Shown one piece after another: positions 5,432-20,484 of a DNA stretch of 64,000 nucleotides. Location of the stretch: NCBI GenBank assembly GCA_963719035.1, contig CAVRAO010000008.1, positions 256,001-320,000 of the forward strand, given 5' to 3'. The notes below the pieces were generated by a model that worked only from the letters and a program-made list of their open reading frames with translations, was not told the origin of the DNA and did no database searches. Both the position numbers and the translations under genes were made by a program. The first letter of the stretch is position 1, and each line of letters begins with the position of its first letter. The stretch comes from Methanobacteriota archaeon (GTDB taxonomy: Archaea; Halobacteriota; Bog-38; Methanoflorentales; Methanoflorentaceae).

Positions 5432-5549
5432 AAAAACCCCATCGTACATCGGCATCTGCGCTTAAATGTCTTCCGTTCAGGCTGCATTTTACGTAATAAA
5501 CCTTGTAACAACCTTTATGCTAGAGAACGGAGTATGTAGCCGCATTGTC

Positions 5550-5620
5550 GCGGTAGTGGTGTAGAGGCAGCACAAAGGCTTCCCAAGCCTTTAACCCGGG
5601 TTCGAGTCCCGGCTACCGCA
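5550..5620 (+). tRNA. tRNA-Gly(CCC)
   Basis: GCGGTAG/CTACCGC acceptor; AAGGC-TTCCCAA-GCCTT anticodon arm; GGTTCGAGTCC T-arm. Confidence 0.95.
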
Positions 5621-5795
5621 CTGTCTAAGCTAAGAACATAAAGTCGTTCCTACGTTACTTAGGTGCGCACTTTTGCAACAGCAGAGATATGTTGCTGTAG
5701 TTCTGTCAAAAAGGGCCTTATACAAATCGACGGGTCATCAAAAACGAGGAAAAATGAAGGGACTGCCTCAGTCAAAAGCGAAATAAGTGACGGAT

Positions 5796-6011
5796 TTAGC
5801 GTCTGTTTACTCGTTCAGTTGCGAGCTTTATATCATTCCCTAAGACCGTCTTTCGATCTGCGTACTTCGTAAGCTCAACGGCTTCTTTGGCAACGGCTGC
5901 ACCAAAGTCTTCCGCCCTCTCTGCCATTATTTTTACCGCCGTGCGATTAGCTCGTTCAGCTCCAGCAACCTTCATAATGCGCAAAACGACTGCCAGTGGT
6001 ATCTCTGCCAT
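5796..6011 (-). CDS. Archaeal histone (HMf family), divergent variant
   Basis: RIMKVAGAER and RKTV...DIKLA histone-fold motifs; 71 aa; GGAGAG RBS. Confidence 0.9.
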   Translation of the reverse strand: MAEIPLAVVLRIMKVAGAERANRTAVKIMAERAEDFGAAVAKEAVELTKYADRKTVLGNDIKLATERVNRR

Positions 6012-6355
6012 AATTACCGCTCTCTCCTAAGGCCGTCACACATAAAAAAGTTGTGATTAGCGTCTTACACACTTTGCTACAATTTGCCCGCAAACGCTTC
6101 AAACTGGAAAAATTAATAACTGGCGCTGCCCAACTATCGTGCGGGATTGTAGTGGAGAAGTGTTAAACAGCGAAAAACACAGCGGTGCCAATTGCCAGTG
6201 GCGGCGTTCTAAACTTGCGGCAGGGCGTTCAGCTGAACACGTAGGGCTTCGACAAGAACTCAGACAGAAAGAAAACAAAATACGTAAGAAAAGAGTCCCT
6301 TAGCTCTGAATATGCGCGTTATTTTCTAGGAAAAACAACGCTATCGATTACGAAA

Positions 6356-7864
6356 ATGTTAAAAATAGACGGCTTAAATGCGCTTACGTATGGGATACTT
6401 GACGCTGGCGTCGGAGTTGCTACAGGAGTTATAGGGTATCCTGTCACTGAAATCATCGACAATTTAAAACCTATTTGGATATTCACAGCTAATGAAAAGG
6501 TAGCGCTCGATTTGGCGTTAGGAGCCTCAGCATCAGGCACTTCATCTGTTTTTATAGCCAAACACGTTGGATTAAACGTGGCAGCAGACTCTTTGGTCAC
6601 AGCAGCAACCCACGGCGTTGGTGCCGGGCTGGTCATAATCGCAGGAGACGACCCCGGCGCTAAATTATCGCAAAATGAGCAGGATTCTAGATACTACGGA
6701 AAGTTAGCGGAGATCCCAGTATTCGAGCCACATAGCGCCAGAAATGCGTATGATTGTGCTTTATGGGCTTTTAAACTATCTGAACAACTCTCAGTGCCAG
6801 TAATAATGAGGGTGACAAGCAGGCTCTTGAACGTGGAGGGTTATGTTGAGCGCGTACCCGTTGAGTCGCTTCCCGTTGTAAGAATAGGAAAAGGCGTCTG
6901 GGACCTTACACTTTTAGGAAGGCATCAAAACCTTCTTAAAAACAAATATCCCAAGATGCTCGAGTTTGCTGAGACAACAGAACTAAATGAAGAAAACGGC
7001 ACAGGCGTTATCGGAATTATTTCCACGGGCTTTGCATCTACTGTGGTCGATGATGCAATCGACAGACGAAGTGATTTTGCGCACCTAAAACTTGGAATAG
7101 TCAACCCGTTATGTCAGCGGCGAGTTGATTCATTTCTAAAAGATCACGACCGCGTGCTAGTCATTGAAGAAGGTGCACCGCTCGTCGAGGAGTCGATCCG
7201 CGGTAAAGTCCTCGGCAAGCTCTCAGGACATCTGCCACGCTTTGGAGAACTCACGCTAGATGACGTCAATCGAGCGTTGAATTACGTTGATGCTGATTGC
7301 ATCTCCACACAATTTGACGTCGAAACACTCGAGAGCAGACACTACAAAGCAGAGATCTGTGAAGACTGCCCCTTTTTGCCGTTCTATCACGCTCTTGCCA
7401 AAGTCGACGAGATGATTGCCGGAGATCTGGGCTGTATCATAAGGTCGGCAAGTCCGCCATTAAACGTTATCGACGTGGCTTATTCTCTCGGCTCAGCAAT
7501 TGGAGTGGCTTCTGGATTTGAACATGGTGGCATAGCAGTGTTAGGAGATTTCGCGTTCTTACACAGTGGCGTTGTCGCGTTAATAAGCGCGCTAGTCTTT
7601 AAGCGCAGCGTCAAGGTATTTGTGCTCGAAAATCGAATTTCAGCTATAACAGGGGGACAGCAAACACCTGTGGTCTCCGACTTGGTCGGCGCACTATGTA
7701 GAAACTACGGAGCCAGCTATAAAATAGTGAATGCAATAGAGATGGGCGAAAAATCGTTCGAGGACCTCCTGCGAGCAACGAAGAACTCTACAGGAGCCCT
7801 AGTTGTCGTTGTCAGGGCCTCATGCCCCAAATACAGCAAGCCTCCTCGAAATGCCGAAGCTTAG
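6356..7864 (+). CDS. IorA-like ThDP-dependent 2-oxoacid enzyme lacking the C-terminal ferredoxin domain
   Basis: NEKVA, KHVGLNVAAD, GDDPG..SQNEQDSR, CEDCP, GDLGC, GDFAFLHSG, ENRISAITGGQ. Confidence 0.85.
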   Translation: MLKIDGLNALTYGILDAGVGVATGVIGYPVTEIIDNLKPIWIFTANEKVALDLALGASASGTSSVFIAKHVGLNVAADSLVTAATHGVGAGLVIIAGDDPGAKLSQNEQDSRYYGKLAEIPVFEPHSARNAYDCALWAFKLSEQLSVPVIMRVTSRLLNVEGYVERVPVESLPVVRIGKGVWDLTLLGRHQNLLKNKYPKMLEFAETTELNEENGTGVIGIISTGFASTVVDDAIDRRSDFAHLKLGIVNPLCQRRVDSFLKDHDRVLVIEEGAPLVEESIRGKVLGKLSGHLPRFGELTLDDVNRALNYVDADCISTQFDVETLESRHYKAEICEDCPFLPFYHALAKVDEMIAGDLGCIIRSASPPLNVIDVAYSLGSAIGVASGFEHGGIAVLGDFAFLHSGVVALISALVFKRSVKVFVLENRISAITGGQQTPVVSDLVGALCRNYGASYKIVNAIEMGEKSFEDLLRATKNSTGALVVVVRASCPKYSKPPRNAEA

Positions 7865-9022
7865 TCAGGTGTACATCACACCTCGAACGATGTCCTCGAG
7901 CTCCTCCTGAGAGACCGATTTCTTTGTTTCACAAACGCGTTTTACATCGTCAAGAATTTGGCACAGCTCAGCGCGGGTCGGTCTATAGCCTAGCTGTGCG
8001 ATCACGTACTGGAGTGCTTTTTTTCCTGTATGCTTGCCGATGACGATTCGTCTCTTGTTGCCTACTAAGTCAGGTGAGAACAGTTCGTACGTCTCTGGCT
8101 CCTCTAGCACTGCAGCAACGTGTATACCCGACTCGTGTGAAAACGCATTCAAACCTACTACCGGCTTATTTTTCGGCAGGCGAAAGCGTGAGTGATATTC
8201 GACTATTTTCGACAAATCCATCAGTTTTGTGAGGTCGTACGAGTCAACGCCAAACTGGACACGCAGCGCCACAAGCAACTCCTCGAGCGGAGTGTTTCCA
8301 ACTCGCTCCCCTATTCCGTTGACAGTTGTGTGCAACTGAAACACCCCAGCTTCTGCTGCGGTGATAGTGTTGGCGACAGCCATGCCGAGGTCGTTGTGAC
8401 AATGAATACAAAACGGTATATCGACGACCTTTTTCATTTCAGTTACTAGGTCGTAGCACGATGCCGGCCTGAGGGCGCCAACCGTGTCTGCGATGCTGAC
8501 GTAGTCGGCCCCGTGGTCTTCACCCTGTTTAAAAAAACGCTTAAGTACCTCTGGATTGGTTCTAGTCGCGTCTTCTGCCGCAAATCGCACTATTAAGCCA
8601 TGTTCTTTTGCATACTCTAGCGTCGAAAGGGCACACTCCAACATCTCATCAAATGTGCGATGATACTTGTGTTTGAGATGCAGAGCGGAAGTGGCCATGA
8701 AAAGCCCCACAACGTCCACATCGCAGTCCAACGCTTCATCTATGTCGTGAAAAATCGCTCTCGAAAGACAGCATACCTTAGTGTTTAACCCCAAATTCGC
8801 AATTTTTTTTACCATCGCCTTTTCTTTTGAAGAAACTGCGGGAAATCCAGCTTCGATGATCTCGACCCCAATCGAGTCCAGCTTCGTGGCGATCTCAACT
8901 TTTTCTTCCATACCAAAAACGACGCCAGGCGCTTGTTCGCCGTCACGCAGTGTAACGTCACAAATTTCAATGTTGTGAATACCAGTTCTCGGCAATGTAA
9001 AAGGCGATTCAAAGTTACCCAT
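7865..9022 (-). CDS. aksA: Homocitrate synthase family (AksA-type)
   Basis: DVTLRDGEQAPG, HCHNDLG, GIGERVGN, HESGIH; no LeuA/CimA regulatory domain. Confidence 0.8.
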   Translation of the reverse strand: MGNFESPFTLPRTGIHNIEICDVTLRDGEQAPGVVFGMEEKVEIATKLDSIGVEIIEAGFPAVSSKEKAMVKKIANLGLNTKVCCLSRAIFHDIDEALDCDVDVVGLFMATSALHLKHKYHRTFDEMLECALSTLEYAKEHGLIVRFAAEDATRTNPEVLKRFFKQGEDHGADYVSIADTVGALRPASCYDLVTEMKKVVDIPFCIHCHNDLGMAVANTITAAEAGVFQLHTTVNGIGERVGNTPLEELLVALRVQFGVDSYDLTKLMDLSKIVEYHSRFRLPKNKPVVGLNAFSHESGIHVAAVLEEPETYELFSPDLVGNKRRIVIGKHTGKKALQYVIAQLGYRPTRAELCQILDDVKRVCETKKSVSQEELEDIVRGVMYT

Positions 9023-9213
9023 AGTCAACCTGAATGACTTCGATAAGCACACTCACAGTCTGCACTTAAATAGATTACTTGCCCGACTTGTGGAGTTTGG
9101 AGGCTTGAGTTAACGTCAAGATCAGCTTATTATGCACAAACCAAGCGGGCATAGTTTAGAAGATCCATAAATTGATAATATCGAGAGCGGCAAATAGTAC
9201 TGGTGAATAAATC

Positions 9214-10467
9214 TTGGATACTCAAAGAACTATTAGCGAGAAGATACTGTCTAACGCTTCGGGAAAACCAGCGAGAGCTAATGACTTTGTTTTAGCGCAG
9301 GTTCACGCAGCAATGGCTCACGATGGTACCAGCGTACTCGGAGTGCGAGCATTTGAAGCGATGGGCGCGGATTCTGTTTGGGACCCAAATAAGATCGCTA
9401 TAGTCTTTGATCATATTGCCCCGGCCAGCACGGAGGCAGCAGCAACCCTTCAGCATACGATCCGCGCGTGGACAAAACGTCAGGAAATTACTCACTTCTT
9501 CGATGTTGGCGAGGGAATATGCCATCAGCTCATGGTCGAGCACGGCCTTGCCCTGCCAGGCACCGTAGTCGTTGGGGCGGATTCACACTCGTGCACGTAC
9601 GGAGCTCTGGGAGCCTTCGCGACAGGCGTCGGTGCAACAGACATTGCCGAGGTTTTTGCAACGGGAACGTTGTGGTTCAAAGTGCCTGAAACGCTCAAGA
9701 TTGTCATTAATGGAAAACTCCGCGCTTATGTTGGCGCAAAAGATGTCATTCTCAAAATCGCAGGAATGATTGGTGCCGACGGTGCGTCGTATAAAGCACT
9801 CGAGTTCTACGGTTCGACGATCGCTGACATATCGATGGACGGGCGGCTCTCAATTAGCAACATGGCAATCGAAGTTGGGGCGAAAGTGGGAATCATCCCG
9901 CCAGATCGAAAAACCATTGAGTACCTCGACCGAATTCAACCTCCTTTGAGTTTTACGCCGTGCTATGCTGATGAGGGCGCTGCTTACACAGATGAGCTCT
10001 ACTTTACAATTGATGATTTGGGACCTCAGGTCGCGTGTCCTCACGAAGTGGATAACGTGAAAGACGTAGAAGATGTAGCGGGAACGCCGATCGACCAGGT
10101 CTTCATCGGTTCGTGTACGAACGGACGTTTTGAAGATCTAAAAGAGGGCGCAACCATACTACGCGGCGAGACGGTCGCCGTGCGAACGATCATCGTTCCA
10201 GCGTCGAAGCACGTTTTGCTAACTTGCATACGGACTGGTGTCTTAGAGACATTGATCGAAGCTGGTGCCACTATTTGTAGTCCAGGATGTGGACCGTGTC
10301 TCGGTGCGCAAAACGGCGTTTTGGGACACGGAGAAGCTTGTCTCTCAACTTCCAACAGAAACTTCAAGGGCAGAATGGGTGTAGATGGGCTAATCTACCT
10401 TGCGTCCCCGGCAACAGCCGCAGCAACAGCACTCGCGGGCGAAATCGCTGACCCACGACAGCGCTAG
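9214..10467 (+). CDS. aksD: Homoaconitase/3-isopropylmalate dehydratase large subunit
   Basis: [38 protein letters not shown]. Confidence 0.8.
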
Positions 10468-10501
10468 ATCTTGTCGAGTACTATCTCATAATCCTAACTT
10501 T

Positions 10502-10837
10502 TTAAATGCTGGAAGATCTCTTGATCTCCTCAATCTGTTCAATCAAGATCTTTTCAATGGCGTCTAGCAAATACTCGAGCGAGGGACTTCTGACTGTGAA
10601 TTTTCTAGGGATTCCTTTGTAGGTCACGGTGTCGCCTGCGTCAATTGAAATCATTGGTTCTCGGACGACGAGATCTGCTTTGAACTCGCTTGCGGCGATT
10701 TTTTCAATTTGGAGGTCCCACATTTTTTCATCAATTTCTTGTTCGATTTCTTGCGCCAGATGCTTCGCCATGTGAGTCAAAAACGCAATTTTTTGATTAA
10801 CTAGGTATTCTTCTTGTAAGGACAACGCCACTGACAT
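10502..10837 (-). CDS. Hypothetical protein
   Basis: ~111 aa ORF filling the gap between the large and small subunit genes; start uncertain. Confidence 0.5.
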   Translation of the reverse strand: MSVALSLQEEYLVNQKIAFLTHMAKHLAQEIEQEIDEKMWDLQIEKIAASEFKADLVVREPMISIDAGDTVTYKGIPRKFTVRSPSLEYLLDAIEKILIEQIEEIKRSSSI

Positions 10838-10956
10838 AATCCTGCATTGTTTCGGAACTATTAAACACTTCTTCAGTCTTTTAGCGCTCATACAGATATG
10901 TTCGCCCCCCACAATCCCCGCATACTTTATATCGCTACGTTTTCAATTAGTCTATA

Positions 10957-11463
10957 ATGCTCATTAGGGGAAACGTGTGGAAATACGGTGACAATGTTAA
11001 CACTGATCTGATAATACCTGGCAAATATTTGAGAACAACTAACATCAGCGTTTTCGCAGCGCACGCAATGGAGGGGATTGACAGAAATTTTTCACCCCGT
11101 GCTGGAGACATAATAGTTGCCGGCAAGAACTTTGGCTGTGGATCATCCCGAGAGCAAGCGGTTCTCGCGCTGAAACACGCTAAGATCGGATGCGTCGTTG
11201 CGATATCATTCGGTCGAATCTTTTTCAGAAATGCAATCAATATAGGTCTGCCAATAGTCGAAGCTAACGTCGTTGATTTTGTCCACAAGGGAGATGAGAT
11301 TGAAGTCGATTTTTCCGCAGGGCTTGTGAAAACGCGCAATAAGGTCGTTCAAGGTTCGAAGCTTCCTAGATTCTTACAGGAAATCCTCGAAGAGGGGGGC
11401 CTAGTTGAATATAGACAGAGACATCCGCGTGGCCCCAGCCTGGAGGAATCTGATGTTTCGTAG
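10957..11463 (+). CDS. aksE: Homoaconitase small subunit
   Basis: [37 protein letters not shown]; YLRT loop typical of methanogen homoaconitase. Confidence 0.82.
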
Positions 11464-11502
11464 ACGTAGGCGCGTAGCTAAGCAGCTTTTCCTTAGAACT
11501 AT

Positions 11503-12456
11503 ATGAAAATCGCCGTTGCTCAAGGAGATGGAGTTGGGAAGGAGATCATACCGCCGTGTATCGAGATTCTAAATCTGCTGTTAAAGGGCCCAAAATTCAT
11601 TGATTTGGATATAGGTTACTCCAAATGGGTAAGAGAAGGCGCGCCTATAACCGATTTAGACATTGATTTGATCAAACAAACTGATTGTATGCTTTTAGGT
11701 GCAGTAACCACTGCTCCCGGGAGCAGCGTCGTCGTCCGACTAAGAAGAACATTTGATCTTTTTGCTAATCTTCGGCCTTTTCGATCGTACGATTTAACCC
11801 CTCATAAATTGAACATGACAATAATCAGAGAAAACCTTGAAGGATTATATGCAGGCATAGAAGAAGTTTCAGTTGATATTGCAGTCACTAAACGTGTGAT
11901 TACTCGCTATAATACGGAAAGACTCGCTTCCTTCGCTAGCGCGTTACAGAACGTAAAAAAAATTACAATAGTTCACAAAGCAAACGTACTTAAATCAGAT
12001 GTCCTCTTTCGAGATGTCTGCGCGCATGTGTTAGATGAGCGCCGCATCTCTTACGATGAAATGTACGTTGATACCGCGGCATACAATCTAATTAAACACC
12101 CAGAGATTTTTGACCACATCCTGACATCGAATTTGTTCGGTGATATCTTGTCAGATGAGGCTGCTGGACTTACAGGCGGCCTCGGACTTTGTCCAAGCGC
12201 TAACATCGGGCCTGACTATGCAATTTTTGAGCCAATACACGGATCTGCACCTAACATTGCTGGGCGTGGCATAGCAAATCCAATCGGGGCAATACTAAGT
12301 GTTAAAATGCTTCTTGAGTGGGCCGGTGAACAAAGTAAAGCTATCCTGCTAGACAACGCAGTCAAGAAGACTATAGAAAAAGGCGTAATGACCCCTGATC
12401 TTGGCGGTATGAACTCGACAAAAGAAGTGACGCGATCGATAATAAGTTGTCTCTGA
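11503..12456 (+). CDS. aksF: Homoisocitrate/isopropylmalate dehydrogenase family
   Basis: GDGVGKE, IRENLEGLY, HKANV, NLFGDILSD, FEPIHGSAP. Confidence 0.78.
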   Translation: MKIAVAQGDGVGKEIIPPCIEILNLLLKGPKFIDLDIGYSKWVREGAPITDLDIDLIKQTDCMLLGAVTTAPGSSVVVRLRRTFDLFANLRPFRSYDLTPHKLNMTIIRENLEGLYAGIEEVSVDIAVTKRVITRYNTERLASFASALQNVKKITIVHKANVLKSDVLFRDVCAHVLDERRISYDEMYVDTAAYNLIKHPEIFDHILTSNLFGDILSDEAAGLTGGLGLCPSANIGPDYAIFEPIHGSAPNIAGRGIANPIGAILSVKMLLEWAGEQSKAILLDNAVKKTIEKGVMTPDLGGMNSTKEVTRSIISCL

Positions 12457-12463
12457 TGATCAA

Positions 12464-13318
12464 ATGATTTTTCCTGAACACTGTATGTATGTTGCAGTCA
12501 GAGACTGCGACGATAAGACAACACGACCATCGGCCGGTGAAGCTATCTATTTCTCTTCTCGCTATATCGTGTTATTTTGGCAAGGACAGGCTGCAATCTA
12601 CGAAGTCAATTCAAATGGAGACGGACTACTACGATCCATCTCGGTTGTCAACGAGATTGCAGGCTTTGCCGAGACTTTTGTGTACGAACAGAAAGTCGAC
12701 ATCTTCAACAGAAGCAGGTTAATTACAGAAGCAAAGCGTTTGTGCAAGCCACCAATAAAAGCTGTAATCTTTCAAGGATTTGATCTTCATTGGACGTTTG
12801 TCTACGATCCGGACTTGAACAGCGTCATAGAGATCGAGGTTTTTGACATCACCCCCCCAGACCCACCCTATCTCGTCACGCTTATCAAGAAACTTGAAGA
12901 TGCAGGCATTTTTGGGGACCTGTCCGTTCAGTTCAAGCCGATCGTACAAGATCTTAGAAGACTTAATGCAGGTACTATATTCCCTTGTTCAGCGTCAGGC
13001 ATTGGATCGAGCCATCTCAACAGGCCCGGAGTTCAAATTGAGGAGGATTCGGTGCTTGTGGGATGTGACATTTCAAGACAAGTACTCGAAGCGCGATTTC
13101 CAGCGTCAAACTTCGAACACGAGAATATATGTCCAACAAAAACCATCAGGCCGCGCAAGCCTTTTATCGCAAAATGTTGCAGGTCAGCAAGAGTTGGACC
13201 TATTGAACTGTTTGGCATACAAGGATACATCGTTCATTGGGGGGCAAACCCGTACGAAGTCGTCTCTGCTATTAGGGATCTCATAACGCGATATACTGAC
13301 GGAGTCAAGCAGGAGTAG
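12464..13318 (+). CDS. Cys-rich hypothetical protein, probably co-transcribed with aksEF
   Basis: 284 aa, 7 nt after the aksF stop; FPCS, GCDIS, NICP, CCRS, VHWGA motifs. Confidence 0.75.
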   Translation: MIFPEHCMYVAVRDCDDKTTRPSAGEAIYFSSRYIVLFWQGQAAIYEVNSNGDGLLRSISVVNEIAGFAETFVYEQKVDIFNRSRLITEAKRLCKPPIKAVIFQGFDLHWTFVYDPDLNSVIEIEVFDITPPDPPYLVTLIKKLEDAGIFGDLSVQFKPIVQDLRRLNAGTIFPCSASGIGSSHLNRPGVQIEEDSVLVGCDISRQVLEARFPASNFEHENICPTKTIRPRKPFIAKCCRSARVGPIELFGIQGYIVHWGANPYEVVSAIRDLITRYTDGVKQE

Positions 13319-13341
13319 CTCAGCCCTTCTGCTTAGAGAAA

Positions 13342-13442
13342 TGCGGAGGGAGGGATTCGAACCCACGAATGCCTTCGCAACAGGATGTCTCAAACAACAG
13401 TTCTTAAGTCCTGCGCCTTTGACCTGGCTTGGCTACCTCCGC
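13342..13442 (-). tRNA. tRNA-Leu(TAA) with 16-nt intron at 37/38 (13387-13402)
   Basis: GCGGAGG/CCTCCGC acceptor; CAGGA-CTTAAG[intron]A-TCCTG; long variable arm. Confidence 0.93.
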
Positions 13443-13939
13443 TGTAAGTTGACTAATCCATAAACATATAAAAGCTTATTTTGGCAACTCGTTTTGCTGT
13501 GAGAGGTTGACCTGCTGAGAGCGTTTTCTAATACGCCCGTCCAAGAGCCTCTCTATCCAACGCAAAAACGCCGTCGAAAGTGACGTTCAACTGTCCTCCG
13601 GCTTTGTGATCCAGCTCTCGAACTGCTGCTCGCCACACCTGATAGTTCCATTTTCTATAGGGGCGTCGATCCACAATTCTAATAGCACGTGAAATAACAT
13701 AAATATGTGTTTGATACGGTTCAATCGGAAGCGTACTAGTTTAACCAGTTCCGTGCTTCCCGACCGTGAGCGAGGATTCGACAAATGATAGCGTCCACAT
13801 TGTGCGTGCCATTTGACGAAGTTCAATCATTCAGCTCTTTTGATGATGCTTCAAGGATCGTCCACCTATACATGTTTCAGGGTTAAAAAAGACGCACTAC
13901 GGATTATGACAGGCCGGATGTAACGACAAACTGATAGGA

Positions 13940-14033
<94 letters not shown>

Positions 14034-14305
14034 ATGTCTCATCTTCGGGAGAATATAGCGAAATCGCTGCGCGTTTTTACCCGATCGATGACAACGATAC
14101 GCTTTATAAAATATATTTTTTTCTGACTTTTCTTCAAGGGCTTGCAAGGCAATGCTTCACAGAGGTTTATTAAATTTTGCCATACTAGTTTTAAAACGAT
14201 TTCTATCAAAAAAAATAAGAAACTACGGCACAATGTTTCCTCAAGCTGCAGCTTAGTACAAGACAGCTAACATTCAAAACTTAGCTAAAGTCGATAGGAG
14301 GGATC

Positions 14306-15253
14306 ATGAGAGTATTGATAACTGGCGGCGCTGGATTCATAGGTAGTAATTTCGTACGCTACATGCTCAGCATACACCAATCGGCGGAACTTGTGGTTCT
14401 AGATAAACTGACGTACGCTGGGAATGTGGACAACCTGAAAGACGTATTAGCTAGTATCGAATTCGTCAAAGGTGACATTTGCGATGAGAAACCCGTAAAG
14501 TTGGTAATGAAGGACTGCGACTGCGTGATTAACTTTGCAGCTGAGACGCACGTCGATAAGTCTATTCTTAACTCCGCTGCATTCGTTCGAACAGATGTCT
14601 TGGGCACTCAAGTCTTGCTTGACTCGGCGAAAGAGCACCAGATTGAGCGGTTCATTCAAGTGTCTACAGATGAAGTTTACGGCAGCACTCGTAGCGGATC
14701 CTTCGGCGAGTCTGATAAGTTAGATCCTTCAAGTCCTTATGCGGCGAGCAAAGCAGGGGCAGATTTGTTGATGTCCTCCTATTTCAAGACGTTTAACTTT
14801 CCTTGTGTCATAACCCGCAGTGCTAACAACTATGGGCCATATCAGCATCCCGAGAAATTGATTCCGCACTTTATTACCAGCGCTATAAGAAACAGCAAGC
14901 TAACTCTTTATGGCCAAGGAGACAACATCCGAGATTGGATCCACGTTGAAGATAACTGCAAAGCTATAGACTACGTTCGTCAGATGGGCAAGACTGGAGA
15001 AATTTACAACATTGGCGCTGGTAACGAGAAGAGCAACTTGGACGTAACGAAAGCTATCCTACAGCTTCTGGATAAGCCTTCAACGCTCATGACGTTCACA
15101 AATGACCGTCTGGGACACGACTTTAGATATTCCCTAGACTGTTCGAAGATTAAGGCTCTTGGATGGCAGCCCCGAATTTCATTTGAAGATGGATTGGCCC
15201 AGACTGTTCGATGGTACCAAGAGAACGAGCCGTGGTGGTCATCGCTAGTTTAA
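14306..15253 (+). CDS. rfbB: dTDP-glucose 4,6-dehydratase
   Basis: GGAGFIG, AAETHVD, STDEVYG, PYAASK, NNYGPYQHPEK. Confidence 0.93.
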   Translation: MRVLITGGAGFIGSNFVRYMLSIHQSAELVVLDKLTYAGNVDNLKDVLASIEFVKGDICDEKPVKLVMKDCDCVINFAAETHVDKSILNSAAFVRTDVLGTQVLLDSAKEHQIERFIQVSTDEVYGSTRSGSFGESDKLDPSSPYAASKAGADLLMSSYFKTFNFPCVITRSANNYGPYQHPEKLIPHFITSAIRNSKLTLYGQGDNIRDWIHVEDNCKAIDYVRQMGKTGEIYNIGAGNEKSNLDVTKAILQLLDKPSTLMTFTNDRLGHDFRYSLDCSKIKALGWQPRISFEDGLAQTVRWYQENEPWWSSLV

Positions 15254-15306
15254 AAAAACGCTTGAGCGGGTTTTCATGGAAAAAAAGGTTCCTAGGGAGA
15301 TGAGTT

Positions 15307-15987
15307 TCAGAGCGAGTTAATATGTCTGATCATCGATTCAAAGACTGTATTCCCATCCACAGAACCCAGAAGTTGCTCTGAGGCTCGTTCCGGGTGCGGC
15401 ATCATAGCAAGTACGTTTTTTTCCAAATTGCTAACCGCTGCAATGTTATCTTGCGATCCGTTTGGGTTTACAGCAGAAGTCGGGCGTCCTTTGTCATCGA
15501 CGTACTTAAAAACGACCTGATCATTTTCGTAAAGCTCTTTGAGCAGTTCAGGGGGAACGACGTATCGTCCTTCTTTGTGAGCTATAGGAAGCTTCACCAC
15601 ATCGCTTGAGAGTGACGTAAAGGGGGATCTACCAATCTTAAGGAGTTTCACCCACTTACAAATGAACTTCGGATACTGATTTAATGTAAACGTACCCGGC
15701 ACAAGGTTTGATTCACTGAGGATTTGAGCCCCGTTACATATACCCAAGATGGGTTTCCCATCCGAAGCCATCTCCCGGACCGACTGCATAATCTTAGTTC
15801 GCGCGGCAATGGCACCTGCTCTTAAGTAGTCCCCGTATGAAAAGCCCCCTGGGATGACCGCGCCATCAAAACCCTCCAAGGCTTCTTTGTACCAAACGAG
15901 TTCTGCATGAACGCCTAAATTATTCAAAGCTTTTTGGACGTCGAGATCGCAATTGCTGCCACCGAAACGAACAATTGCAATCTTCAT
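15307..15987 (-). CDS. purQ: FGAM synthase glutaminase subunit
   Basis: PGGFSYGDYLRAG, GICNGAQ, MMPHPER. Confidence 0.95.
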   Translation of the reverse strand: MKIAIVRFGGSNCDLDVQKALNNLGVHAELVWYKEALEGFDGAVIPGGFSYGDYLRAGAIAARTKIMQSVREMASDGKPILGICNGAQILSESNLVPGTFTLNQYPKFICKWVKLLKIGRSPFTSLSSDVVKLPIAHKEGRYVVPPELLKELYENDQVVFKYVDDKGRPTSAVNPNGSQDNIAAVSNLEKNVLAMMPHPERASEQLLGSVDGNTVFESMIRHINSL

Positions 15988-16004
15988 TAGCACCTTCGTA
16001 ACTC

Positions 16005-16247
16005 CTATACGAGCACTACGCTGTAATCGTGTATGATGGGATTCGCGAGCAGTCTCTGGCACATTCCTTGAGCGACATCAGTTGCATTCTGGCGCGAATC
16101 TGCTTCGAACTCAAGCTCGAAGACTGCCGCTTGTTTCACGGATCGACAATCATATCCAAGATGCTTAAGGGCCTTTTTTATTGTGGCAGCTTCAGGATCC
16201 AACATGCCATTCTTGAGCTTAACGGTTATCTCAGCGCGGAAAAGCAT
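16005..16247 (-). CDS. purS: FGAM synthase subunit PurS
   Basis: LDPE...LLANPIIHDY; adjacent to purQ. Confidence 0.93.
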   Translation of the reverse strand: MLFRAEITVKLKNGMLDPEAATIKKALKHLGYDCRSVKQAAVFELEFEADSRQNATDVAQGMCQRLLANPIIHDYSVVLV

Positions 16248-16446
16248 AGGATGACTGTTGGATCGTAATAGTAAATATTAGTTGTTAATAGATCGTAGTC
16301 TAGCAACTTGATCGATCTAACGCGACCACACGCAAAAAAACGGTGGTGCTCAAAAAACGACTTGAGTGCCCTATTAGACACATTTAGACCTCGTTAGACG
16401 TCAATCCGAACAACTTTAAGCCTACTTCATTGTGGTCAGGAATGTG

Positions 16447-17058
16447 CTACCGGAACCTCTGAACGACTAGCGTTAGGGCAACAGCGATCATTATACCAGC
16501 GAATGAAGGAATCGCTTCAAAACCAGGCACTCCTGCAGCTTTGCCTGTATTGCTTGGGCCTACGGTTGAGGTACTCGATGTAGGCACTGGGGTGTTTGAA
16601 GGATTCGCAGTCGGAGAATGAGAGGCAAACGGAGCTTCCGCGAGTACCTTGCGTTGCAGTGCAGCCACCTCTGAAGCCGATAGTTCTGTATTGTATTTCT
16701 CTAAGACTTTTCCTTGCGGGTCAGTGAGCACGACCAATGGCGGCTTGCTGTAATTGTATAAGTGACCTTGTTCGGTCCCAAGCACGTTGATGTTTACGAA
16801 GCTTGATGAAAGCGCAACAACTTCTGTGTTATTCCATGTGTTTTGATCCATGTTTTTGCATCGCGGACACCATTGTTCGTGTATATATATCAACACGGGC
16901 TTGTTTTTCTCGGCTGCTGTTTTCATCCCCGTTGGATAATCATAAACCCACGCGACTTCGTTTTGCGCTTTGACGCTGACCGTTAGAGAGCAGGTTATTG
17001 TTAAAAGAAGTAGAGCAAGAACGGATAATAGCGTTGCAGAACGAATTGTGAATGACAT
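16447..17058 (-). CDS. Secreted thioredoxin-fold protein with PGF-CTERM anchor
   Basis: Signal peptide, WCPRC, S/T/P-rich linker, VPGFE + TM + basic tail. Confidence 0.8.
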   Translation of the reverse strand: MSFTIRSATLLSVLALLLLTITCSLTVSVKAQNEVAWVYDYPTGMKTAAEKNKPVLIYIHEQWCPRCKNMDQNTWNNTEVVALSSSFVNINVLGTEQGHLYNYSKPPLVVLTDPQGKVLEKYNTELSASEVAALQRKVLAEAPFASHSPTANPSNTPVPTSSTSTVGPSNTGKAAGVPGFEAIPSFAGIMIAVALTLVVQRFR

Positions 17059-17272
17059 ACTTATGTACACTATCACTGTGCTATTTAATTCTTCCAATAC
17101 TGGACCTTAGAGAACCCAAAAGCGATGTAAGTGCGACCCGATCCATTCGATGGTGCGAAAAGGTTTCTAACTTCTTTCATTTCGAGCTGTTCAAATCAAT
17201 AAAAGTCGACGCGAGCGATTGAACTTCACGATAAATTATTCAACTCTTACGCGCACAATAAGGTGAATTTGC

Positions 17273-18397
17273 GTGAGAATCATTCAAGCCTCCTCGTATT
17301 TCTATCCGCATATTGGTGGCGTAGAGACTCATGTCTTTGAGCTAGCTCAAAGCTTGCAGGATATGGGTCATGAAGTCATTGTATTATGCGCTGCCGTTCC
17401 GAAATCAGATCCTAAGGAGGTTCTGAACGGACTCTGCATCTACAGATTTCCCGCTCTAGATCTCCCGTATGTTCCCTTCGTTTATGCTCTGCGACGGCGG
17501 ATTGCGCAGTTCAGTGCTGATGTTATCCATTCGCATTATCCGCCTCCATTCATGTCTTATGGCGCGGTTAAGGGGTTGCCCCACGTCCCACACGTCCTTA
17601 CGTATCACTGTGATCTAGAGATCCCTGATCATATCGCAAACCTAAGGATCCCGAGCGTCTTAAAACACTCTATTCAATGGGTCAACAATAGCTTTTACAC
17701 AAAACCCGTCCTCGATAAGGTTAACCAGATAATTGCTACAACTCGCTCCTACGCACAAAGCTCCCCGGTTCTGCGTAACTATCAGCACAAAATCGTGCCT
17801 AATGGGGTCAGGCTGCAGGCTTTTAACAGCCTACAAGACACAAGCGAGAGAAAGGTTAAGCAAGTGCTCTTCGTCGGTCGGCTAAGCTCTGTCAAAGGCA
17901 TCGACTATCTCATCAAAGCTGCGAAAATCGTACTGAAGCAGCATAAGGATGCAACTTTCCTGATCGTTGGCGATGGAGAAGAGCGACAAAGCCTCAAGGC
18001 GCTTGCCAAAGGCTATGAAAATTGCATCAAGTTTTGCGGGCATATACCAAGACGTGCTCTCGTGGAGCTTTATAAGAGCTCTGCGGTGCTCGTCCTCCCA
18101 TCTTTCACACGACTTGAAGCTTTTGGCGTCGTCCTTTTGGAAGCAATGGCATGCGAAACGCCAGTCATTGCGTCGCGAATTCCGGGCGTGCTCGACGTGA
18201 TCGGCGAGGGAGGTTTTTTAGTAAAGCCGTGTAGCCCACAATCTCTAGCAACAGCTATTCTAGAGATTTTTGAAAATCCAGAAAATGCAAGACGAATGGG
18301 CAAAAAAGGTCGGCAGCTTGTCGAACAGAAGTATGACTGGAAAATAGTGGCGCAGGAGGTCCTGAATGTGTACGCAACTGTCCAAGACCACCCATAA
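17273..18397 (+). CDS. GT4 glycosyltransferase
   Basis: GGVE, FVGRL..KG, EAFGVVLLEAMAC. Confidence 0.9.
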   Translation: MRIIQASSYFYPHIGGVETHVFELAQSLQDMGHEVIVLCAAVPKSDPKEVLNGLCIYRFPALDLPYVPFVYALRRRIAQFSADVIHSHYPPPFMSYGAVKGLPHVPHVLTYHCDLEIPDHIANLRIPSVLKHSIQWVNNSFYTKPVLDKVNQIIATTRSYAQSSPVLRNYQHKIVPNGVRLQAFNSLQDTSERKVKQVLFVGRLSSVKGIDYLIKAAKIVLKQHKDATFLIVGDGEERQSLKALAKGYENCIKFCGHIPRRALVELYKSSAVLVLPSFTRLEAFGVVLLEAMACETPVIASRIPGVLDVIGEGGFLVKPCSPQSLATAILEIFENPENARRMGKKGRQLVEQKYDWKIVAQEVLNVYATVQDHP

Positions 18398-18457
18398 GAC
18401 CGTAGGCAAGGCGCGATTGCGACGATTTAATATATATTAATCGAATTCCATTCTGAG

Positions 18458-19435
18458 ATGAAAATCTGCGCCATTGTACCAATAGCGCCATCTGAACCGT
18501 TCACACTTATCGAAAAATCGATCAAGAGCATAAATGACCTGGACTGCAGTGGGCTAGATTTTGAAGCCTACTATGTCATTGATAGCGGCGGAGAAGATCG
18601 TAACGATCTGTATCAGCTGCTGCCGCCGCATTTTCATTTAGTTTTCAGAAATGACAACAGAGGCCGGCGGGCAGGTGCTATCAATGACGTTCTTAGTATC
18701 ACGGAGGGTGCGGACTACATCGCGTTGTTTGACGTTGATAGCCGCCCCAACATAGATTTTTTGACTGAATGCGTGCGTGAGCTGACAGCAACGAGCAACG
18801 GCGTGCTTGCAAGCGGTTGCCGCTTCGTCACCAATAAAGAGAACACACTTACGAAGATCGTTTCTGTCGAGTACAAGTTCTTTTGTGACATCTATCGCCT
18901 CTGTAGGTGGTCGGGGGGTTTCATTCAATTCAACGGATTGATAGGGGTGTCAAAAGCAGCCTTTCTTCGGAGCACTGGTTTTGACGAACGCTGTGCTTGC
19001 GAAGACTTAGACGTCAGCGAACAGATATATCTCTCGGGGAGCTCTGCGCTTCTCGTTAATGCAAACGTGGGCGAACAAGCCCCCACTTCTATTCAAGACT
19101 TATACAATCAAAGAGTACGGTGGTTCCGCGGAGCAGTCGAAGGATTGCGAAAATATCTTGCTCAGATGTTGACAGCGAACGTGCCGATCTTGGTAAAAAT
19201 TACGTGGCTTAGCTCGCTCTCAGTGCCATTTTTTTCATTCTTGCTAGCACCTTTAGTCCCGCTATACTTACGTGCAATTAAGGCAGAAAGTGACACTCTA
19301 TCAGAATTACTGCAGATCCTGTTCGGCACAATAGGTTATACGTGCTTAATGACACTCTGTGGCGTAGTAGCAGTCGGACAACATCTCACTTCCCGCAAAA
19401 GCGAGTGGGCTGCTGTGACCCGATCAGAGGTCTAA
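18458..19435 (+). CDS. GT2 membrane glycosyltransferase
   Basis: DVD, CEDLD, QRVRW motifs; C-terminal TMs. Confidence 0.85.
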   Translation: MKICAIVPIAPSEPFTLIEKSIKSINDLDCSGLDFEAYYVIDSGGEDRNDLYQLLPPHFHLVFRNDNRGRRAGAINDVLSITEGADYIALFDVDSRPNIDFLTECVRELTATSNGVLASGCRFVTNKENTLTKIVSVEYKFFCDIYRLCRWSGGFIQFNGLIGVSKAAFLRSTGFDERCACEDLDVSEQIYLSGSSALLVNANVGEQAPTSIQDLYNQRVRWFRGAVEGLRKYLAQMLTANVPILVKITWLSSLSVPFFSFLLAPLVPLYLRAIKAESDTLSELLQILFGTIGYTCLMTLCGVVAVGQHLTSRKSEWAAVTRSEV

Positions 19436-19452
19436 TTGAGGGGAGATATATC

Positions 19453-20484
19453 GTGAAGGGCTTACGTAAGTGGCTTGCGGTTTCGTTAACTTTCAGCATA
19501 GTCTCAATACTTGCGCTGCTGCTGCTTACGATCACACCAGGCCAACTCCGCAGCCTCATTCAAATCCATCCAGCCTTCTTAGCTGCCGCGTTGATTGTTC
19601 AGCTCTGTTCTTGGCTTGTCTGGAGCGCCCGAATGAAGGTCATGTCAGAAGCACTCGGAGGCGAGGTTCCTTTCAAAAAATCAGTCGAGATAATATTATC
19701 AAATCTGTTTGCCGCGGCAATCACCCCTGGGCACGCTGGCGGGGAAATCACTAGAGTGCAGTTGTTAAGAAGCTGCAACCTCTCTGTGGGGGATGCCTCT
19801 GCTGTCGTTCTAGGAGAGAGAATGTTGGATGCGCTTTTCTTAGGCATAGCTGCGCCGATCGGATTTCTGTTATTTACCAGGTACGTCGAGACCGGTGCAG
19901 GTTTGATAGCCCTTTTTGGCGGTGCGGCCCTAGTTTTCGGTATGCTCTTTTTCATCCTCCTCTACGTCATCGTAAAGCCACGAAAATTGAAGTCTCTCGT
20001 TGGAAAAGCACATTGGTTGTTCGTCAAAGTGCAAGGCGCTGACAAGGCAGACCAGTCTATGCAAAAATTCGTGCGAGAGATTGATGTCTTTCACAATAGC
20101 ACAAAACGGTACCTGAAGGAAGAACGTCAAGCTTTAGCCAAAGGTTTTCTTTTTACGACGGCGTTTTGGCTTCTGCAGTTTTCTATCGCTTCTCTCATCC
20201 TCGTTGGCCTCGGATCATCTCCGTGGATTTTGGCGTCCTTTTCTGCCCAAACAGTCCTGATGATGATCGCCACGATCCCGCTTACCCCGGGAAACAGCGG
20301 CATAGCCGAATTGAGTACTGCTACGATTTATTCGGCCTTCGTAAGCACCTCCGTATTAGGCATCTTTATTCTCGGGTGGAGAGTCGTCACTTATTATCTG
20401 AATATAGTCGTGGGCGGGCTGGTCAGTATAAGGGTCTTACGAGGTCGCGCCGTAGTGGAAGGCGCAGTTGACGGCGTCACCTAA
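19453..20484 (+). CDS. UPF0104/lysylphosphatidylglycerol-synthase TM-domain (flippase-like) protein
   Basis: ITPGHAGGE, ERMLD, PLTPGNSGIAE, WRVVTYY. Confidence 0.85.
   Translation: MKGLRKWLAVSLTFSIVSILALLLLTITPGQLRSLIQIHPAFLAAALIVQLCSWLVWSARMKVMSEALGGEVPFKKSVEIILSNLFAAAITPGHAGGEITRVQLLRSCNLSVGDASAVVLGERMLDALFLGIAAPIGFLLFTRYVETGAGLIALFGGAALVFGMLFFILLYVIVKPRKLKSLVGKAHWLFVKVQGADKADQSMQKFVREIDVFHNSTKRYLKEERQALAKGFLFTTAFWLLQFSIASLILVGLGSSPWILASFSAQTVLMMIATIPLTPGNSGIAELSTATIYSAFVSTSVLGIFILGWRVVTYYLNIVVGGLVSIRVLRGRAVVEGAVDGVT

Follow-up and report, generated by a model that had tools for sequence, protein, structure and literature searches.

Does an archaeal gene cluster for the elongation of 2-oxoacids also carry the genes that turn its product into the thiol of coenzyme B (CoB, 7-mercaptoheptanoylthreonine phosphate)? 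The cluster in question occupies positions 6356–13318 of the analysed window, a stretch of 64,000 nucleotides from the Methanobacteriota archaeon assembly GCA_963719035.1 (contig CAVRAO010000008.1). It comprises genes of the AksA, AksD, AksE and AksF type, flanked by one gene for a thiamine diphosphate (ThDP) protein related to IorA and another for a cysteine-rich protein of the family DUF7714. CoB is the electron donor of methyl-coenzyme M reductase (MCR) in every methanogen and in every anaerobic methane or alkane oxidiser, and to our knowledge the genes acting beyond 2-oxosuberate have been missing for about 25 years. The claim of an earlier interpretation of this DNA (the sequence-only reading) that the late CoB steps are not firmly assigned agrees with the relevant passages of a study of May 2025 (PMC12068725), in which these steps are still called unknown and MMP16 and/or L-ASST are named as possibly needed. 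Our own literature search, which left subscription journals mostly outside, found no paper assigning the late CoB steps or naming a 2-oxosuberate decarboxylase. We hold it to be rather probable that the ThDP protein is the 2-oxosuberate decarboxylase and the DUF7714 protein the 7-mercaptoheptanoate-forming reductase of a CoB cluster. This joint assignment rests on synteny, phyletic pattern and homology.

The Aks enzymes are known to elongate 2-oxoglutarate to 2-oxosuberate, a pathway established in M. jannaschii, and a semialdehyde is placed between 2-oxosuberate and the thiol in section 14.5 of Kaster et al. 2011. In the proposed route, AksA, AksD/AksE and AksF would take 2-oxoglutarate to 2-oxosuberate in three elongation rounds. 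The IorA-like protein would bind ThDP and convert 2-oxosuberate to 7-oxoheptanoate, the hydroxyalkyl-ThDP intermediate taking up a proton to release the aldehyde instead of undergoing oxidation. We infer a non-oxidative decarboxylation because the ferredoxin domain and the second subunit are missing. 7-Oxoheptanoate is the compound that published labelling work reportedly places between 2-oxosuberate and the thiol. The aldehyde may react with sulfide to form the thioaldehyde, either spontaneously or via a COG1900-type sulfurtransferase, and DUF7714 would reduce this 7-thioxoheptanoate to 7-mercaptoheptanoate by passing two electrons via an Fe-S cluster and/or a cysteine pair.

The first step is to establish what the core genes are. 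The sequence-only reading had seen within 7 kb a synthase lacking a regulatory domain, both aconitase subunits and a dehydrogenase, and the open reading frames (ORFs) and Pfam domains bear this out: the AksA-type synthase carries only HMGL-like and HCS_D2, without a LeuA regulatory/dimer domain. It reaches 454.9 bits with TIGR02090, under the cut-off of 484.75, and is 32–41% identical to the genome's other synthases and 52–59% identical to synthases within the clusters of other lineages. AksD exceeds the cut-off of TIGR01343 hacA_fam (548.9 versus 385.7 bits) and AksE that of TIGR02087 (205.2 versus 108.95 bits). The small subunit does contain the YLRT loop reported earlier, and the distinction drawn there between YLRT for homoaconitase and YLVY for isopropylmalate isomerase holds against two solved chains: the loop aligns to YLRT of 2pkp_A ("Homoaconitase small subunit"), as opposed to YLVY of 3vba_A ("Isopropylmalate/citramalate isomerase small subunit"). 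The NCBIfam equivalog models were tried and rejected as a discriminator between Aks and Leu enzymes; both sets obtain nearly equal scores, and only the LeuB model and the loop motif separate them. HacA_Meth (NF040615, cut-off 550) gives 505.9 bits for AksD and 506.3 bits for the genome's Leu-type large-subunit paralog, which is also similar to AksD with TIGR01343 (566.5 bits). NF040604 and NF040625 give 175.2 and 177.6 bits for AksE, below the cut-off of 230, and the genome's Leu-type subunit scores 207.4 bits. AksF obtains 366.7 bits with TIGR02088 (cut-off 409.8), 314 with AksF2_Meth/NF040626 (cut-off 540) and 303 with NF040619 (cut-off 500); its assignment rests on context.

The source genome (2.19 Mb, 13 contigs, 91% complete; the window lies on contig C8) carries mcrA (228 bits) and MMP16 (486 bits), and the organism thus needs CoB. 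With the window proteins as tblastn queries, two further sets of isomerase and dehydrogenase genes were found. The set on contig C6 has the small-subunit loop YLVL and a dehydrogenase that passes the LeuB equivalog cut-off (406.6 versus 393 bits), which speaks against a role of the window's genes in leucine synthesis. The diaminopimelate (DAP) route to lysine is represented by dapA (351 bits) and lysA (496 bits), both above their cut-offs, and no LysX above the cut-off was detected in the 91%-complete genome (best 37.8 versus 275.6 bits). The checks that had been suggested on mcr, lysine and leucine therefore all came out in favour of the Aks pathway. Because of the YLRT loop, the separate Leu set, the presence of mcrA and of DAP-pathway lysine genes and the absence of LysX, the four core genes are, as judged by homology and context, those of the Aks 2-oxosuberate pathway. 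The pimelate alternative of the sequence-only reading did not stand: neither BioB (best 39 bits) nor BioF (best 20 bits) was found above its cut-off in this 91%-complete genome. The second additional set, on contig C2 (74919–79465), consists of synthase, dehydrogenase, small-subunit and large-subunit genes, with a synthase of 456 aa and the loop YKYD, and its large subunit scores 386 bits with the aconitate hydratase model against 324 bits for the window's large subunit. This set may represent a route to 2-oxoglutarate resembling Re-citrate synthase, aconitase and isocitrate dehydrogenase. A fourth synthase paralog (C2:192548–193682) was retrieved by tblastn in two overlapping pieces whose reading frames differ, possibly due to a frameshift or an assembly error.

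The second step concerns the flanking proteins. Both the ThDP enzyme and the Cys-rich protein noted earlier have Pfam domains, and the latter, with eight cysteines counted, belongs to DUF7714 (PF24830): it scores 261.1 bits against a gathering cut-off of 25, residues 1–275 covering profile positions 1–278 of 280. The same protein matches NF052538 ("XcbA family") with 73.8 bits (E 1.4e-20). A DUF7714 profile built from 20 sequences, searched against 1.84 billion representatives, retrieved just 250 proteins at E ≤ 0.001. XcbA-family proteins were recovered by it at E 1e-12 to 1e-36; 60 of the weaker near-full-length matches among the 150 listed were scanned, and each of them matches only NF052538, 51 above its cut-off. 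When 8 DUF7714 and 20 XcbA-type proteins are aligned jointly, five cysteines (C175, C201, C223, C238 and C239) do not vary, and neither do P174, G200, P224, W259 and G260. On this alignment evidence DUF7714 and XcbA form one superfamily with one cysteine set, in which DUF7714 is a distant archaeal sister family and not XcbA itself. XcbA of Xanthobacter autotrophicus Py2 is presented, in the parts of the PNAS 2022 paper devoted to it (PMC9457059), as the last enzyme of bacterial coenzyme M (CoM) synthesis, converting sulfoethanethioaldehyde to CoM, and as a reddish-brown [2Fe-2S] protein with nine cysteines and −372 mV. In the same parts its authors report no homolog of known function and describe only XcbB as related to methanogen CoM enzymes. 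No paper linking XcbA to archaeal proteins turned up in our literature search, again with most subscription journals outside its reach. The AF2 model of the DUF7714 protein has a pLDDT of 90.1. Foldseek found nothing for it in the PDB at E ≤ 0.001, and the DUF7714 profile had no match among PDB sequences at E ≤ 1. VIA-align wide returned generic alpha/beta matches over residues 118–284 (best Z 8.5 with 2q5c_D, 85 residues, 2.7 Å), the N-terminal half being barely covered.

A scan with one genome per species gave 499 relatives of DUF7714, and the gene neighbourhood was analysed in the best 80 loci of these. Genomes within one family, being kin, do not count as independent; the weight lies on how many distinct arrangements and families there are. 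aksE and/or aksF lie immediately beside DUF7714 in 79 of these 80 loci. With D for DUF7714, the orders are E-D-F (49), E-F-D (16), E-D (11), D-F (2), F-D (1) and D alone (1). The 17 closest loci have the gene order of the window. The other 63 come from Methanosarcina, Methanolobus, Methanococcoides, Methanohalophilus, Methanothrix and similar organisms; here DUF7714 lies between aksE and aksF (49 loci), after aksE without a directly following aksF (11, with a contig end in some), before aksF (2) or alone (1). A YLRT small subunit is encoded in 71/80 loci; the loop pattern was unmatched in 5 and a small-subunit ORF was not found in 4. Further loci from other families have DUF7714 between or beside aksE/aksF in 13 of 14 cases, the fourteenth being a contig of 3.5 kb, and all nine small subunits read there contain RYLRT or KYLRT.

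The phyletic distribution of DUF7714 and McrA was compared in 401 genomes sampled from the phylum, whose families are labelled f1, f2 and so on. DUF7714 is confined to 12 families, all of them MCR-positive. The genomes with DUF7714 and with McrA, respectively, number 22/23 and 17/23 in f1, 52/52 and 52/52 in f2 (Methanosarcinaceae-type), 14/14 and 13/14 in f3, 15/15 and 13/15 in f9, 28/28 and 26/28 in f12, 9/9 and 8/9 in f14, and 12/12 for both proteins in f21. Both are found in every genome of f23 (3/3 and 3/3), f24 (6/6 and 6/6), f25 (7/7 and 7/7), f28 (3/3 and 3/3) and f30 (1/1 and 1/1). DUF7714 was found in 0/75 genomes of the 11 families that have no McrA match (f5, f6, f8, f13, f15, f16, f19, f20, f22, f26 and f27), nor was it found in f18, where 9 genomes gave one weak McrA match. 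The eight small-subunit loci of five DUF7714-negative, McrA-positive genomes (one each from f4, f7, f10, f11 and f17) contain no YLRT; their loops read YLTT, YKFD, YLTL, YLVF, YLVT and YKYD. Thus DUF7714 tracks the YLRT-type homoaconitase within this phylum. The YKFD/YKYD loop type, known from the C2 set of the source genome itself, occurs in these DUF7714-negative genomes at two loci (L120 and L126). A route to CoB was not apparent from these searches in five genomes (G007, G010, G011, G032 and G097; loci L119–L126).

The ThDP protein has IOR_alpha (TIGR03336) as its best NCBIfam match, with 318.9 bits against a cut-off of 650.9 over profile positions 7–536 of 595, and is 32–36% identical to the genome's own 609-aa IorA on C2. 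G397, D398 and N426 of the ThDP motif (GD...N) and the cysteines C335, C338, C360 and C490 are invariant in all 13 aligned sequences; the four cysteines are those that we take to be ligands of the [4Fe-4S] cluster nearest to ThDP in 2-oxoacid:ferredoxin oxidoreductases (OFORs). In a true indolepyruvate-type oxidoreductase (IOR) the ferredoxin domain carries the electrons away, and IorB is the second subunit. Pfam gave no Fer4 match in the window protein, whose alignment to the genome's true IorA stops some 55 residues short of the Fer4 tail. This C-terminal tail is present only in the true IorA and is missing from the window protein and the 11 other members of the group (alignments A3 and A4). 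Neither in the window nor in related clusters does the ThDP gene have a neighbour of IorB size; in the window it is flanked by tRNA-Gly and aksA, and there is no ORF of at least 80 aa at 5455–6319. A search of PDB sequences with the ThDP protein gave no match at E ≤ 0.001. Its model (pLDDT 75.6) matches ThDP enzymes in Foldseek at E 1e-13 to 1e-16, about equally acetolactate synthase, 2-hydroxyacyl-CoA lyase, KivD, PDC and the OFOR alpha subunit 8ys5_A, and the fold match does not distinguish a decarboxylase from an oxidoreductase in this model comparison.

In the 401 genomes, a clean gap separates orthologs of the ThDP protein from true IorA proteins: the former score 283 bits or more, the latter 241 bits or less. 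The form of about 500 aa, counted from per-genome E-values, occurs in f1 (22/23), f2 (46/52), f9 (15/15), f21 (10/12), f30 (1/1), f34 (2/2) and f36 (1/2). Of the 17 close loci, 15 have it next to aksA, and the remaining pair are contigs of 3.3 and 1.8 kb. In f9 the order ThDP-aksA-aksD-aksE-aksF-DUF7714 was seen in 3/3 loci, two of them with the gene of methanogenesis marker protein 11 (Mmp11) in front; read from coordinates, the ThDP gene is 4–7 kb from DUF7714 in 13 of 15 f9 genomes and on a different contig in the other two. It adjoins aksA-aksD in the one f34 locus (1/1). Six DUF7714-positive families, f3, f12, f14, f23, f24 and f25, whose DUF7714 is closest to Methanoregula/Methanomicrobiales proteins, have no 500-aa form. 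They possess a ThDP form of 386–445 aa in which the middle domain is largely deleted and the four cysteines and ThDP-motif residues are kept. Its best match in the source genome is the window's ThDP gene (156–174 bits) over the true IorA (83–87 bits). This short form was found in f3 (14/14), f12 (28/28), f14 (7/9), f23 (3/3), f24 (6/6), f25 (7/7) and one f21 genome, and not in other families of the 401 genomes at E ≤ 1e-35. According to the coordinates it lies 3–4.5 kb from DUF7714 in 64/65 genomes, the remaining one being without listed DUF7714 coordinates. In 10/10 fetched loci of these six Methanomicrobiales-type families the order is Mmp11-radical SAM-ThDP-aksA-aksD-aksE-DUF7714-aksF on one strand (SAM, S-adenosylmethionine). 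Taken together, the two ThDP forms, long and short, are spread over almost the same families as DUF7714, at least nine genome families have one of them in or beside the aks genes, and both flanking genes stay linked to aks through at least three different arrangements. The neighbourhood and phyletic profiling that had been proposed earlier hence linked homologs of both genes to aks across many lineages, and only in MCR-bearing families. Some of the ThDP-protein matches (e.g. in G262, G227, G392, G111, G119, G012, G237, G098 and G130) carry one in-frame stop codon (TGA, TAA or TAG) within the match.

Several observations weigh against the assignment of the two flanking genes to CoB synthesis and of the core genes to the Aks pathway. 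The profile hidden Markov models (HMMs) for the equivalogs HacA, HacB and AksF all score below their cut-offs with the window proteins, and over its full length AksE is slightly nearer to the isopropylmalate isomerase subunit of M. jannaschii (164.8 bits) than to its HacB (149.2 bits). DUF7714 itself remains under the XcbA family cut-off (73.8 versus 150 bits), shares 21–33% identity with XcbA-type proteins and yielded generic matches only in the fold searches, and XcbA's own product is CoM and not the CoB precursor. DUF7714 is missing from the MCR-positive families f7 (0/5), f10 (0/54), f11 (0/4), f17 (0/3) and f29 (0/2), in which McrA was found in 5/5, 35/54 (a divergent McrA), 3/4, 3/3 and 2/2 genomes, and the six McrA-positive genomes in f4 gave no match to it either. 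It is likewise absent from the M. jannaschii control, although the HacB of this organism (2pkp_A, presumably MJ1271) has YLRT, so that the coupling of DUF7714 to YLRT is not absolute. DUF7714 cannot be a universal enzyme, and because MCR-bearing lineages without it exist, another enzyme must do the thiol-forming step elsewhere. As for the ThDP gene, it stands away from aks and directly after Mmp11 (about 300 aa) in f2, f21 and f30 (7 loci), and in the window its convergent orientation to aksA means that they do not share a transcript there. The ThDP protein retains four cysteines in common with true IorA which, given the cluster-ligand role that we assume for them, hint at redox chemistry rather than plain decarboxylation. 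The earlier proposal that the flanking genes offer exactly the chemistries needed next is supported, and the homology of the Cys-rich protein to the thiol-forming XcbA backs it more strongly than a reader of the sequence could have foreseen; DUF7714 is not universal among MCR-bearing archaea, and the two functions are predictions.

How far do these points favour other explanations? The retained cysteines, invariant in all 13 aligned sequences, are the main reason to keep in view that the IorA-like protein could be an oxidative 2-oxoacid:acceptor oxidoreductase, which would either convert 2-oxosuberate to pimeloyl-CoA or deliver electrons via its single cluster to DUF7714. IOR_alpha as the closest family, the co-occurrence of the ThDP gene and DUF7714, and the low potential (−372 mV) given for DUF7714's relative XcbA in the section on its properties (PMC9457059) fit this idea. 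We consider it unlikely, because the protein has no ferredoxin domain and no adjacent IorB-sized gene in the window or in related clusters, and because no BioB or BioF above cut-off in the 91%-complete genome indicates a use of pimeloyl-CoA for biotin. Published labelling work also reportedly puts 7-oxoheptanoate between 2-oxosuberate and the thiol. A further explanation moves DUF7714 into CoM synthesis, where it would reduce sulfoethanethioaldehyde formed from sulfoacetaldehyde and sulfide as an alternative or backup CoM synthase, and its position at aks would reflect co-regulation of two thiol cofactors. XcbA, its only characterised relative, makes CoM according to the pertinent part of PMC9457059. 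Moreover, an M. acetivorans MMP16 deletion mutant still makes CoM by a backup route that fails in sulfide-free medium, as the portion of PMC12068725 on this mutant describes. M. acetivorans has DUF7714, and the phenotype of the mutant would also be in keeping with a thioaldehyde reductase whose substrates are aldehydes thiolated spontaneously. Against this stand the embedding of DUF7714 in, or its abutment on, aksE/aksF in 79/80 and 13/14 loci, with no CoM genes among the annotated neighbours, and the presence in the source genome of MMP16 and of a COG1900 protein resembling L-ASST. In that same portion (PMC12068725), the investigators of MMP16 tentatively credit the backup to L-ASST. An exclusive role in CoM synthesis appears decidedly unlikely to us; a dual CoB/CoM role for DUF7714 is possible.

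It is more improbable still that one or both flanking genes are unrelated to CoB, e.g. an IOR paralog of amino acid catabolism or an Fe-S maturation factor for homoaconitase. Guilt by association underlies both functional predictions, the ThDP gene is convergent with aksA in the window and unlinked to aks in f2, and Mmp11, which is part of the conserved neighbourhood, sits with ycaO-tfuA in the source genome. However, the linkage outlasts several independent rearrangements (convergent, co-directional, split into two loci) and spans families whose proteins are just 31–46% identical, both genes are confined to MCR-bearing families, and DUF7714 has the whole cysteine set of a characterised thiol-forming reductase. 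Finally, we give almost no probability to an assignment of the four core genes to leucine or alpha-aminoadipate lysine synthesis. Family-level HMMs cannot split Leu, Aks and lysine enzymes, and the Aks equivalog scores are all below cut-off, but the YLRT loop, the separate Leu set with LeuB above cut-off, the presence of dapA, lysA and mcrA and the absence of LysX argue against it. The assignment of the ThDP protein as 2-oxosuberate decarboxylase and of DUF7714 as 7-mercaptoheptanoate-forming reductase therefore remains the one we prefer.

A more far-reaching form of this assignment can be derived from the eight-gene operon of the Methanomicrobiales-type families. Tentatively, and with more doubt than confidence, we consider that in Methanomicrobia/Methanosarcinia-type archaea this operon could hold the full late CoB set of ThDP decarboxylase, DUF7714 as 7-mercaptoheptanoate synthase, Mmp11 and a LipS2/BioB-like radical SAM protein, with DUF7714 serving also as backup CoM synthase. 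Mmp11 would then either couple 7-mercaptoheptanoate with threonine or add phosphate to the product, the handling of sulfur would fall to the radical SAM protein, and DUF7714 would at the same time be the sulfide-dependent backup CoM synthase of the M. acetivorans MMP16 deletion mutant. If this were true, bacterial XcbA would have been recruited from an archaeal thiol-cofactor enzyme family, or the reverse, and the statement in the literature that ComA is all that the CoM pathways of bacteria and archaea have in common would have to be qualified.

Mmp11 was identified as the gene preceding the ThDP gene in f2, f21 and f30 (TIGR03280, 324–359 bits). Its domains are TiaS kinase (TCKD) and FLD. 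In 10/10 Methanomicrobiales-type loci (L104–L110 and L115–L117) it is the first gene of the aks operon, and in 9 other loci (L091, L092, L094–L097 and L099–L101) the ThDP gene follows it immediately. Mmp11 may be an ATP-dependent ligase or kinase of the last CoB steps. The Mmp11 of the source genome (C2:273705–274610; L103:5706–6611) lies in an operon of the order ycaO-tfuA-hycI-like-Mmp11. ycaO and tfuA are genes for an MCR modification, and this context points to a role of Mmp11 in MCR modification instead. No paper giving Mmp11 a function was found in the literature searched, which mostly excluded subscription journals. The radical SAM protein of about 322 aa between Mmp11 and the ThDP gene (L107:986–1957 and equivalents) scores 52–62 bits with LipS2 and less with BioB and LipA, all far below cut-off, and is thus weakly like sulfur-inserting enzymes. 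Its homolog in the source genome (C6:89263–90279; L118:9263–10279; 41% identity) has a PP-loop ATPase as its neighbour; L-ASST (HcyBio+CBS), a NIL-ferredoxin and a class V aminotransferase of the cysteine desulfurase type are encoded some 5 kb away.

The region 6356–13318 contains seven ORFs, six described earlier, whose coordinates were all confirmed, and orf136 (Table 1). In the order aksE-aksF-DUF7714, neighbouring genes are 39 bp and 7 bp apart. Between the stop codons of the convergent ThDP gene and aksA there are 0 bp, and aksA and aksD are divergent. The same genes are found together again in 17 close loci and, in other orders, in many distant lineages, far more than chance would produce. 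orf136 matched no Pfam or NCBIfam family. It is retained at the same place with 60–95% identity in 16 of the 17 close loci (L004–L020), the exception L007 being a 1.8-kb contig, and was not seen in the clusters of other families; it is a conserved lineage-specific ORF. The ORF-empty stretches on both sides of the cluster are explained by tRNA genes, of which the two on the right are unusually long, presumably due to introns. In one soil metatranscriptome run, contigs 90–97% alike cover parts of 5432–11523, including a 515-nt contig that spans the aksE/aksF junction, and no contig of this run lies on 11721–14400, DUF7714 included; these contigs are assemblies from a relative and show neither transcription nor its absence. 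Downstream (14306–20484) lies a sugar/lipid-modification block of dTDP-glucose 4,6-dehydratase, family 4 (GT4) and family 2 (GT2) glycosyltransferases and a flippase-like LPG_synthase_TM protein. The GT4 enzyme is weakly like GlcN-phosphatidylglycerol synthase, and PurQ and a thioredoxin-like protein are interspersed. The genes for dTDP-glucose 4,6-dehydratase, PurQ and the thioredoxin-like protein are kept beside the cluster in close relatives.

Table 1 Genes of the cluster and the tRNA genes around it, with positions in the window
Feature	Position	Strand	Evidence and remarks
tRNA-Gly(CCC)	5550..5621	+	Left cluster boundary; Rfam RF00005 66.5 bits, ARAGORN
Short IorA-like ThDP protein, 502 aa	6356..7864	+	Pfam TPP_enzyme_C + POR_N; TIGR03336 318.9 bits
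AksA-type homocitrate/2-oxoacid-elongating synthase, 395 aa	7865..9052	-	Pfam HMGL-like 266.4, HCS_D2 85.1 bits
AksD/HacA homoaconitase large subunit, 417 aa	9214..10467	+	Aconitase family 341.9 bits; TIGR01343 548.9 bits
orf136, 136 aa	10502..10912	-	Between aksD and aksE, opposite strand
AksE/HacB homoaconitase small subunit, 168 aa	10957..11463	+	YLRT loop; TIGR02087 205.2 bits
AksF-type homoisocitrate-series dehydrogenase, 317 aa	11503..12456	+	Iso_dh 285.5 bits
DUF7714 protein, 284 aa, 8 Cys	12464..13318	+	PF24830 261.1 bits
tRNA gene, 101 nt, likely intron-containing	13342..13442	-	Right boundary; Rfam RF00005 47.7 bits, not reported by ARAGORN
tRNA-Glu(TTC), 97 nt	13937..14033	-	Rfam and ARAGORN

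The four core genes represent a known pathway, and what is new are the candidate enzymes for its orphan steps; by curated cut-offs, both flanking genes stand outside any characterised family. The locus and its relatives provide two candidate genes with clear predicted substrates and two more candidates in related operons. Since the candidates occur in genetically tractable Methanosarcina, the gap is directly testable by knockouts and in vitro assays. Confirmation would open the way to heterologous CoB production for MCR biochemistry, provide methanogen-specific targets for methane-mitigation inhibitors and improve genome-based calls of CoB self-sufficiency in MCR-bearing archaea. The link to XcbA, if true, would revise the published view of bacterial and archaeal thiol-cofactor pathways as wholly convergent.

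Compared with M. jannaschii, whose AksA, AksD, AksE and AksF are alike in domain content and in the YLRT loop of the small subunit, the window's genes are clustered with two extra genes, and M. jannaschii is without DUF7714; its aks genes are presumably scattered. The predicted late steps resemble those of ComDE with MMP16/ComF, and of L-ASST, in that a 2-oxoacid first yields an aldehyde on a ThDP enzyme and a reductive thiolation follows, as far as the relevant parts of PMC12068725 and PMC9457059 describe them; for ComDE the likeness is one of pathway description. MMP16 and L-ASST are COG1900 proteins and belong to other families than DUF7714; in the source genome they are encoded at C2:430763–431932 (MMP16) and C6:~83106–84611 (L-ASST). 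The ThDP protein shares with IorA the order of the ThDP-binding domains, the GD...N motif and the C-x2-C...G-C...C set, whereas the true IorA has a 4Fe-4S ferredoxin tail and the window protein has neither this tail nor an adjacent IorB-sized gene. Within the group of the ThDP protein the middle domain varies, and the Methanomicrobiales-type form has lost most of it. XcbA and DUF7714 are alike in length (about 285–300 aa), can be aligned from end to end and have in common five cysteines, the motifs P-C, G-C, C-P, C-C and W-G and, as predicted for DUF7714, the chemistry from thioaldehyde to thiol. They differ in that XcbA is bacterial and neighboured by xcbB-E and DUF7714 is archaeal and neighboured by aks genes, and in the substrate, which is sulfoethanethioaldehyde for XcbA and would be a C7 carboxylate thioaldehyde for DUF7714.

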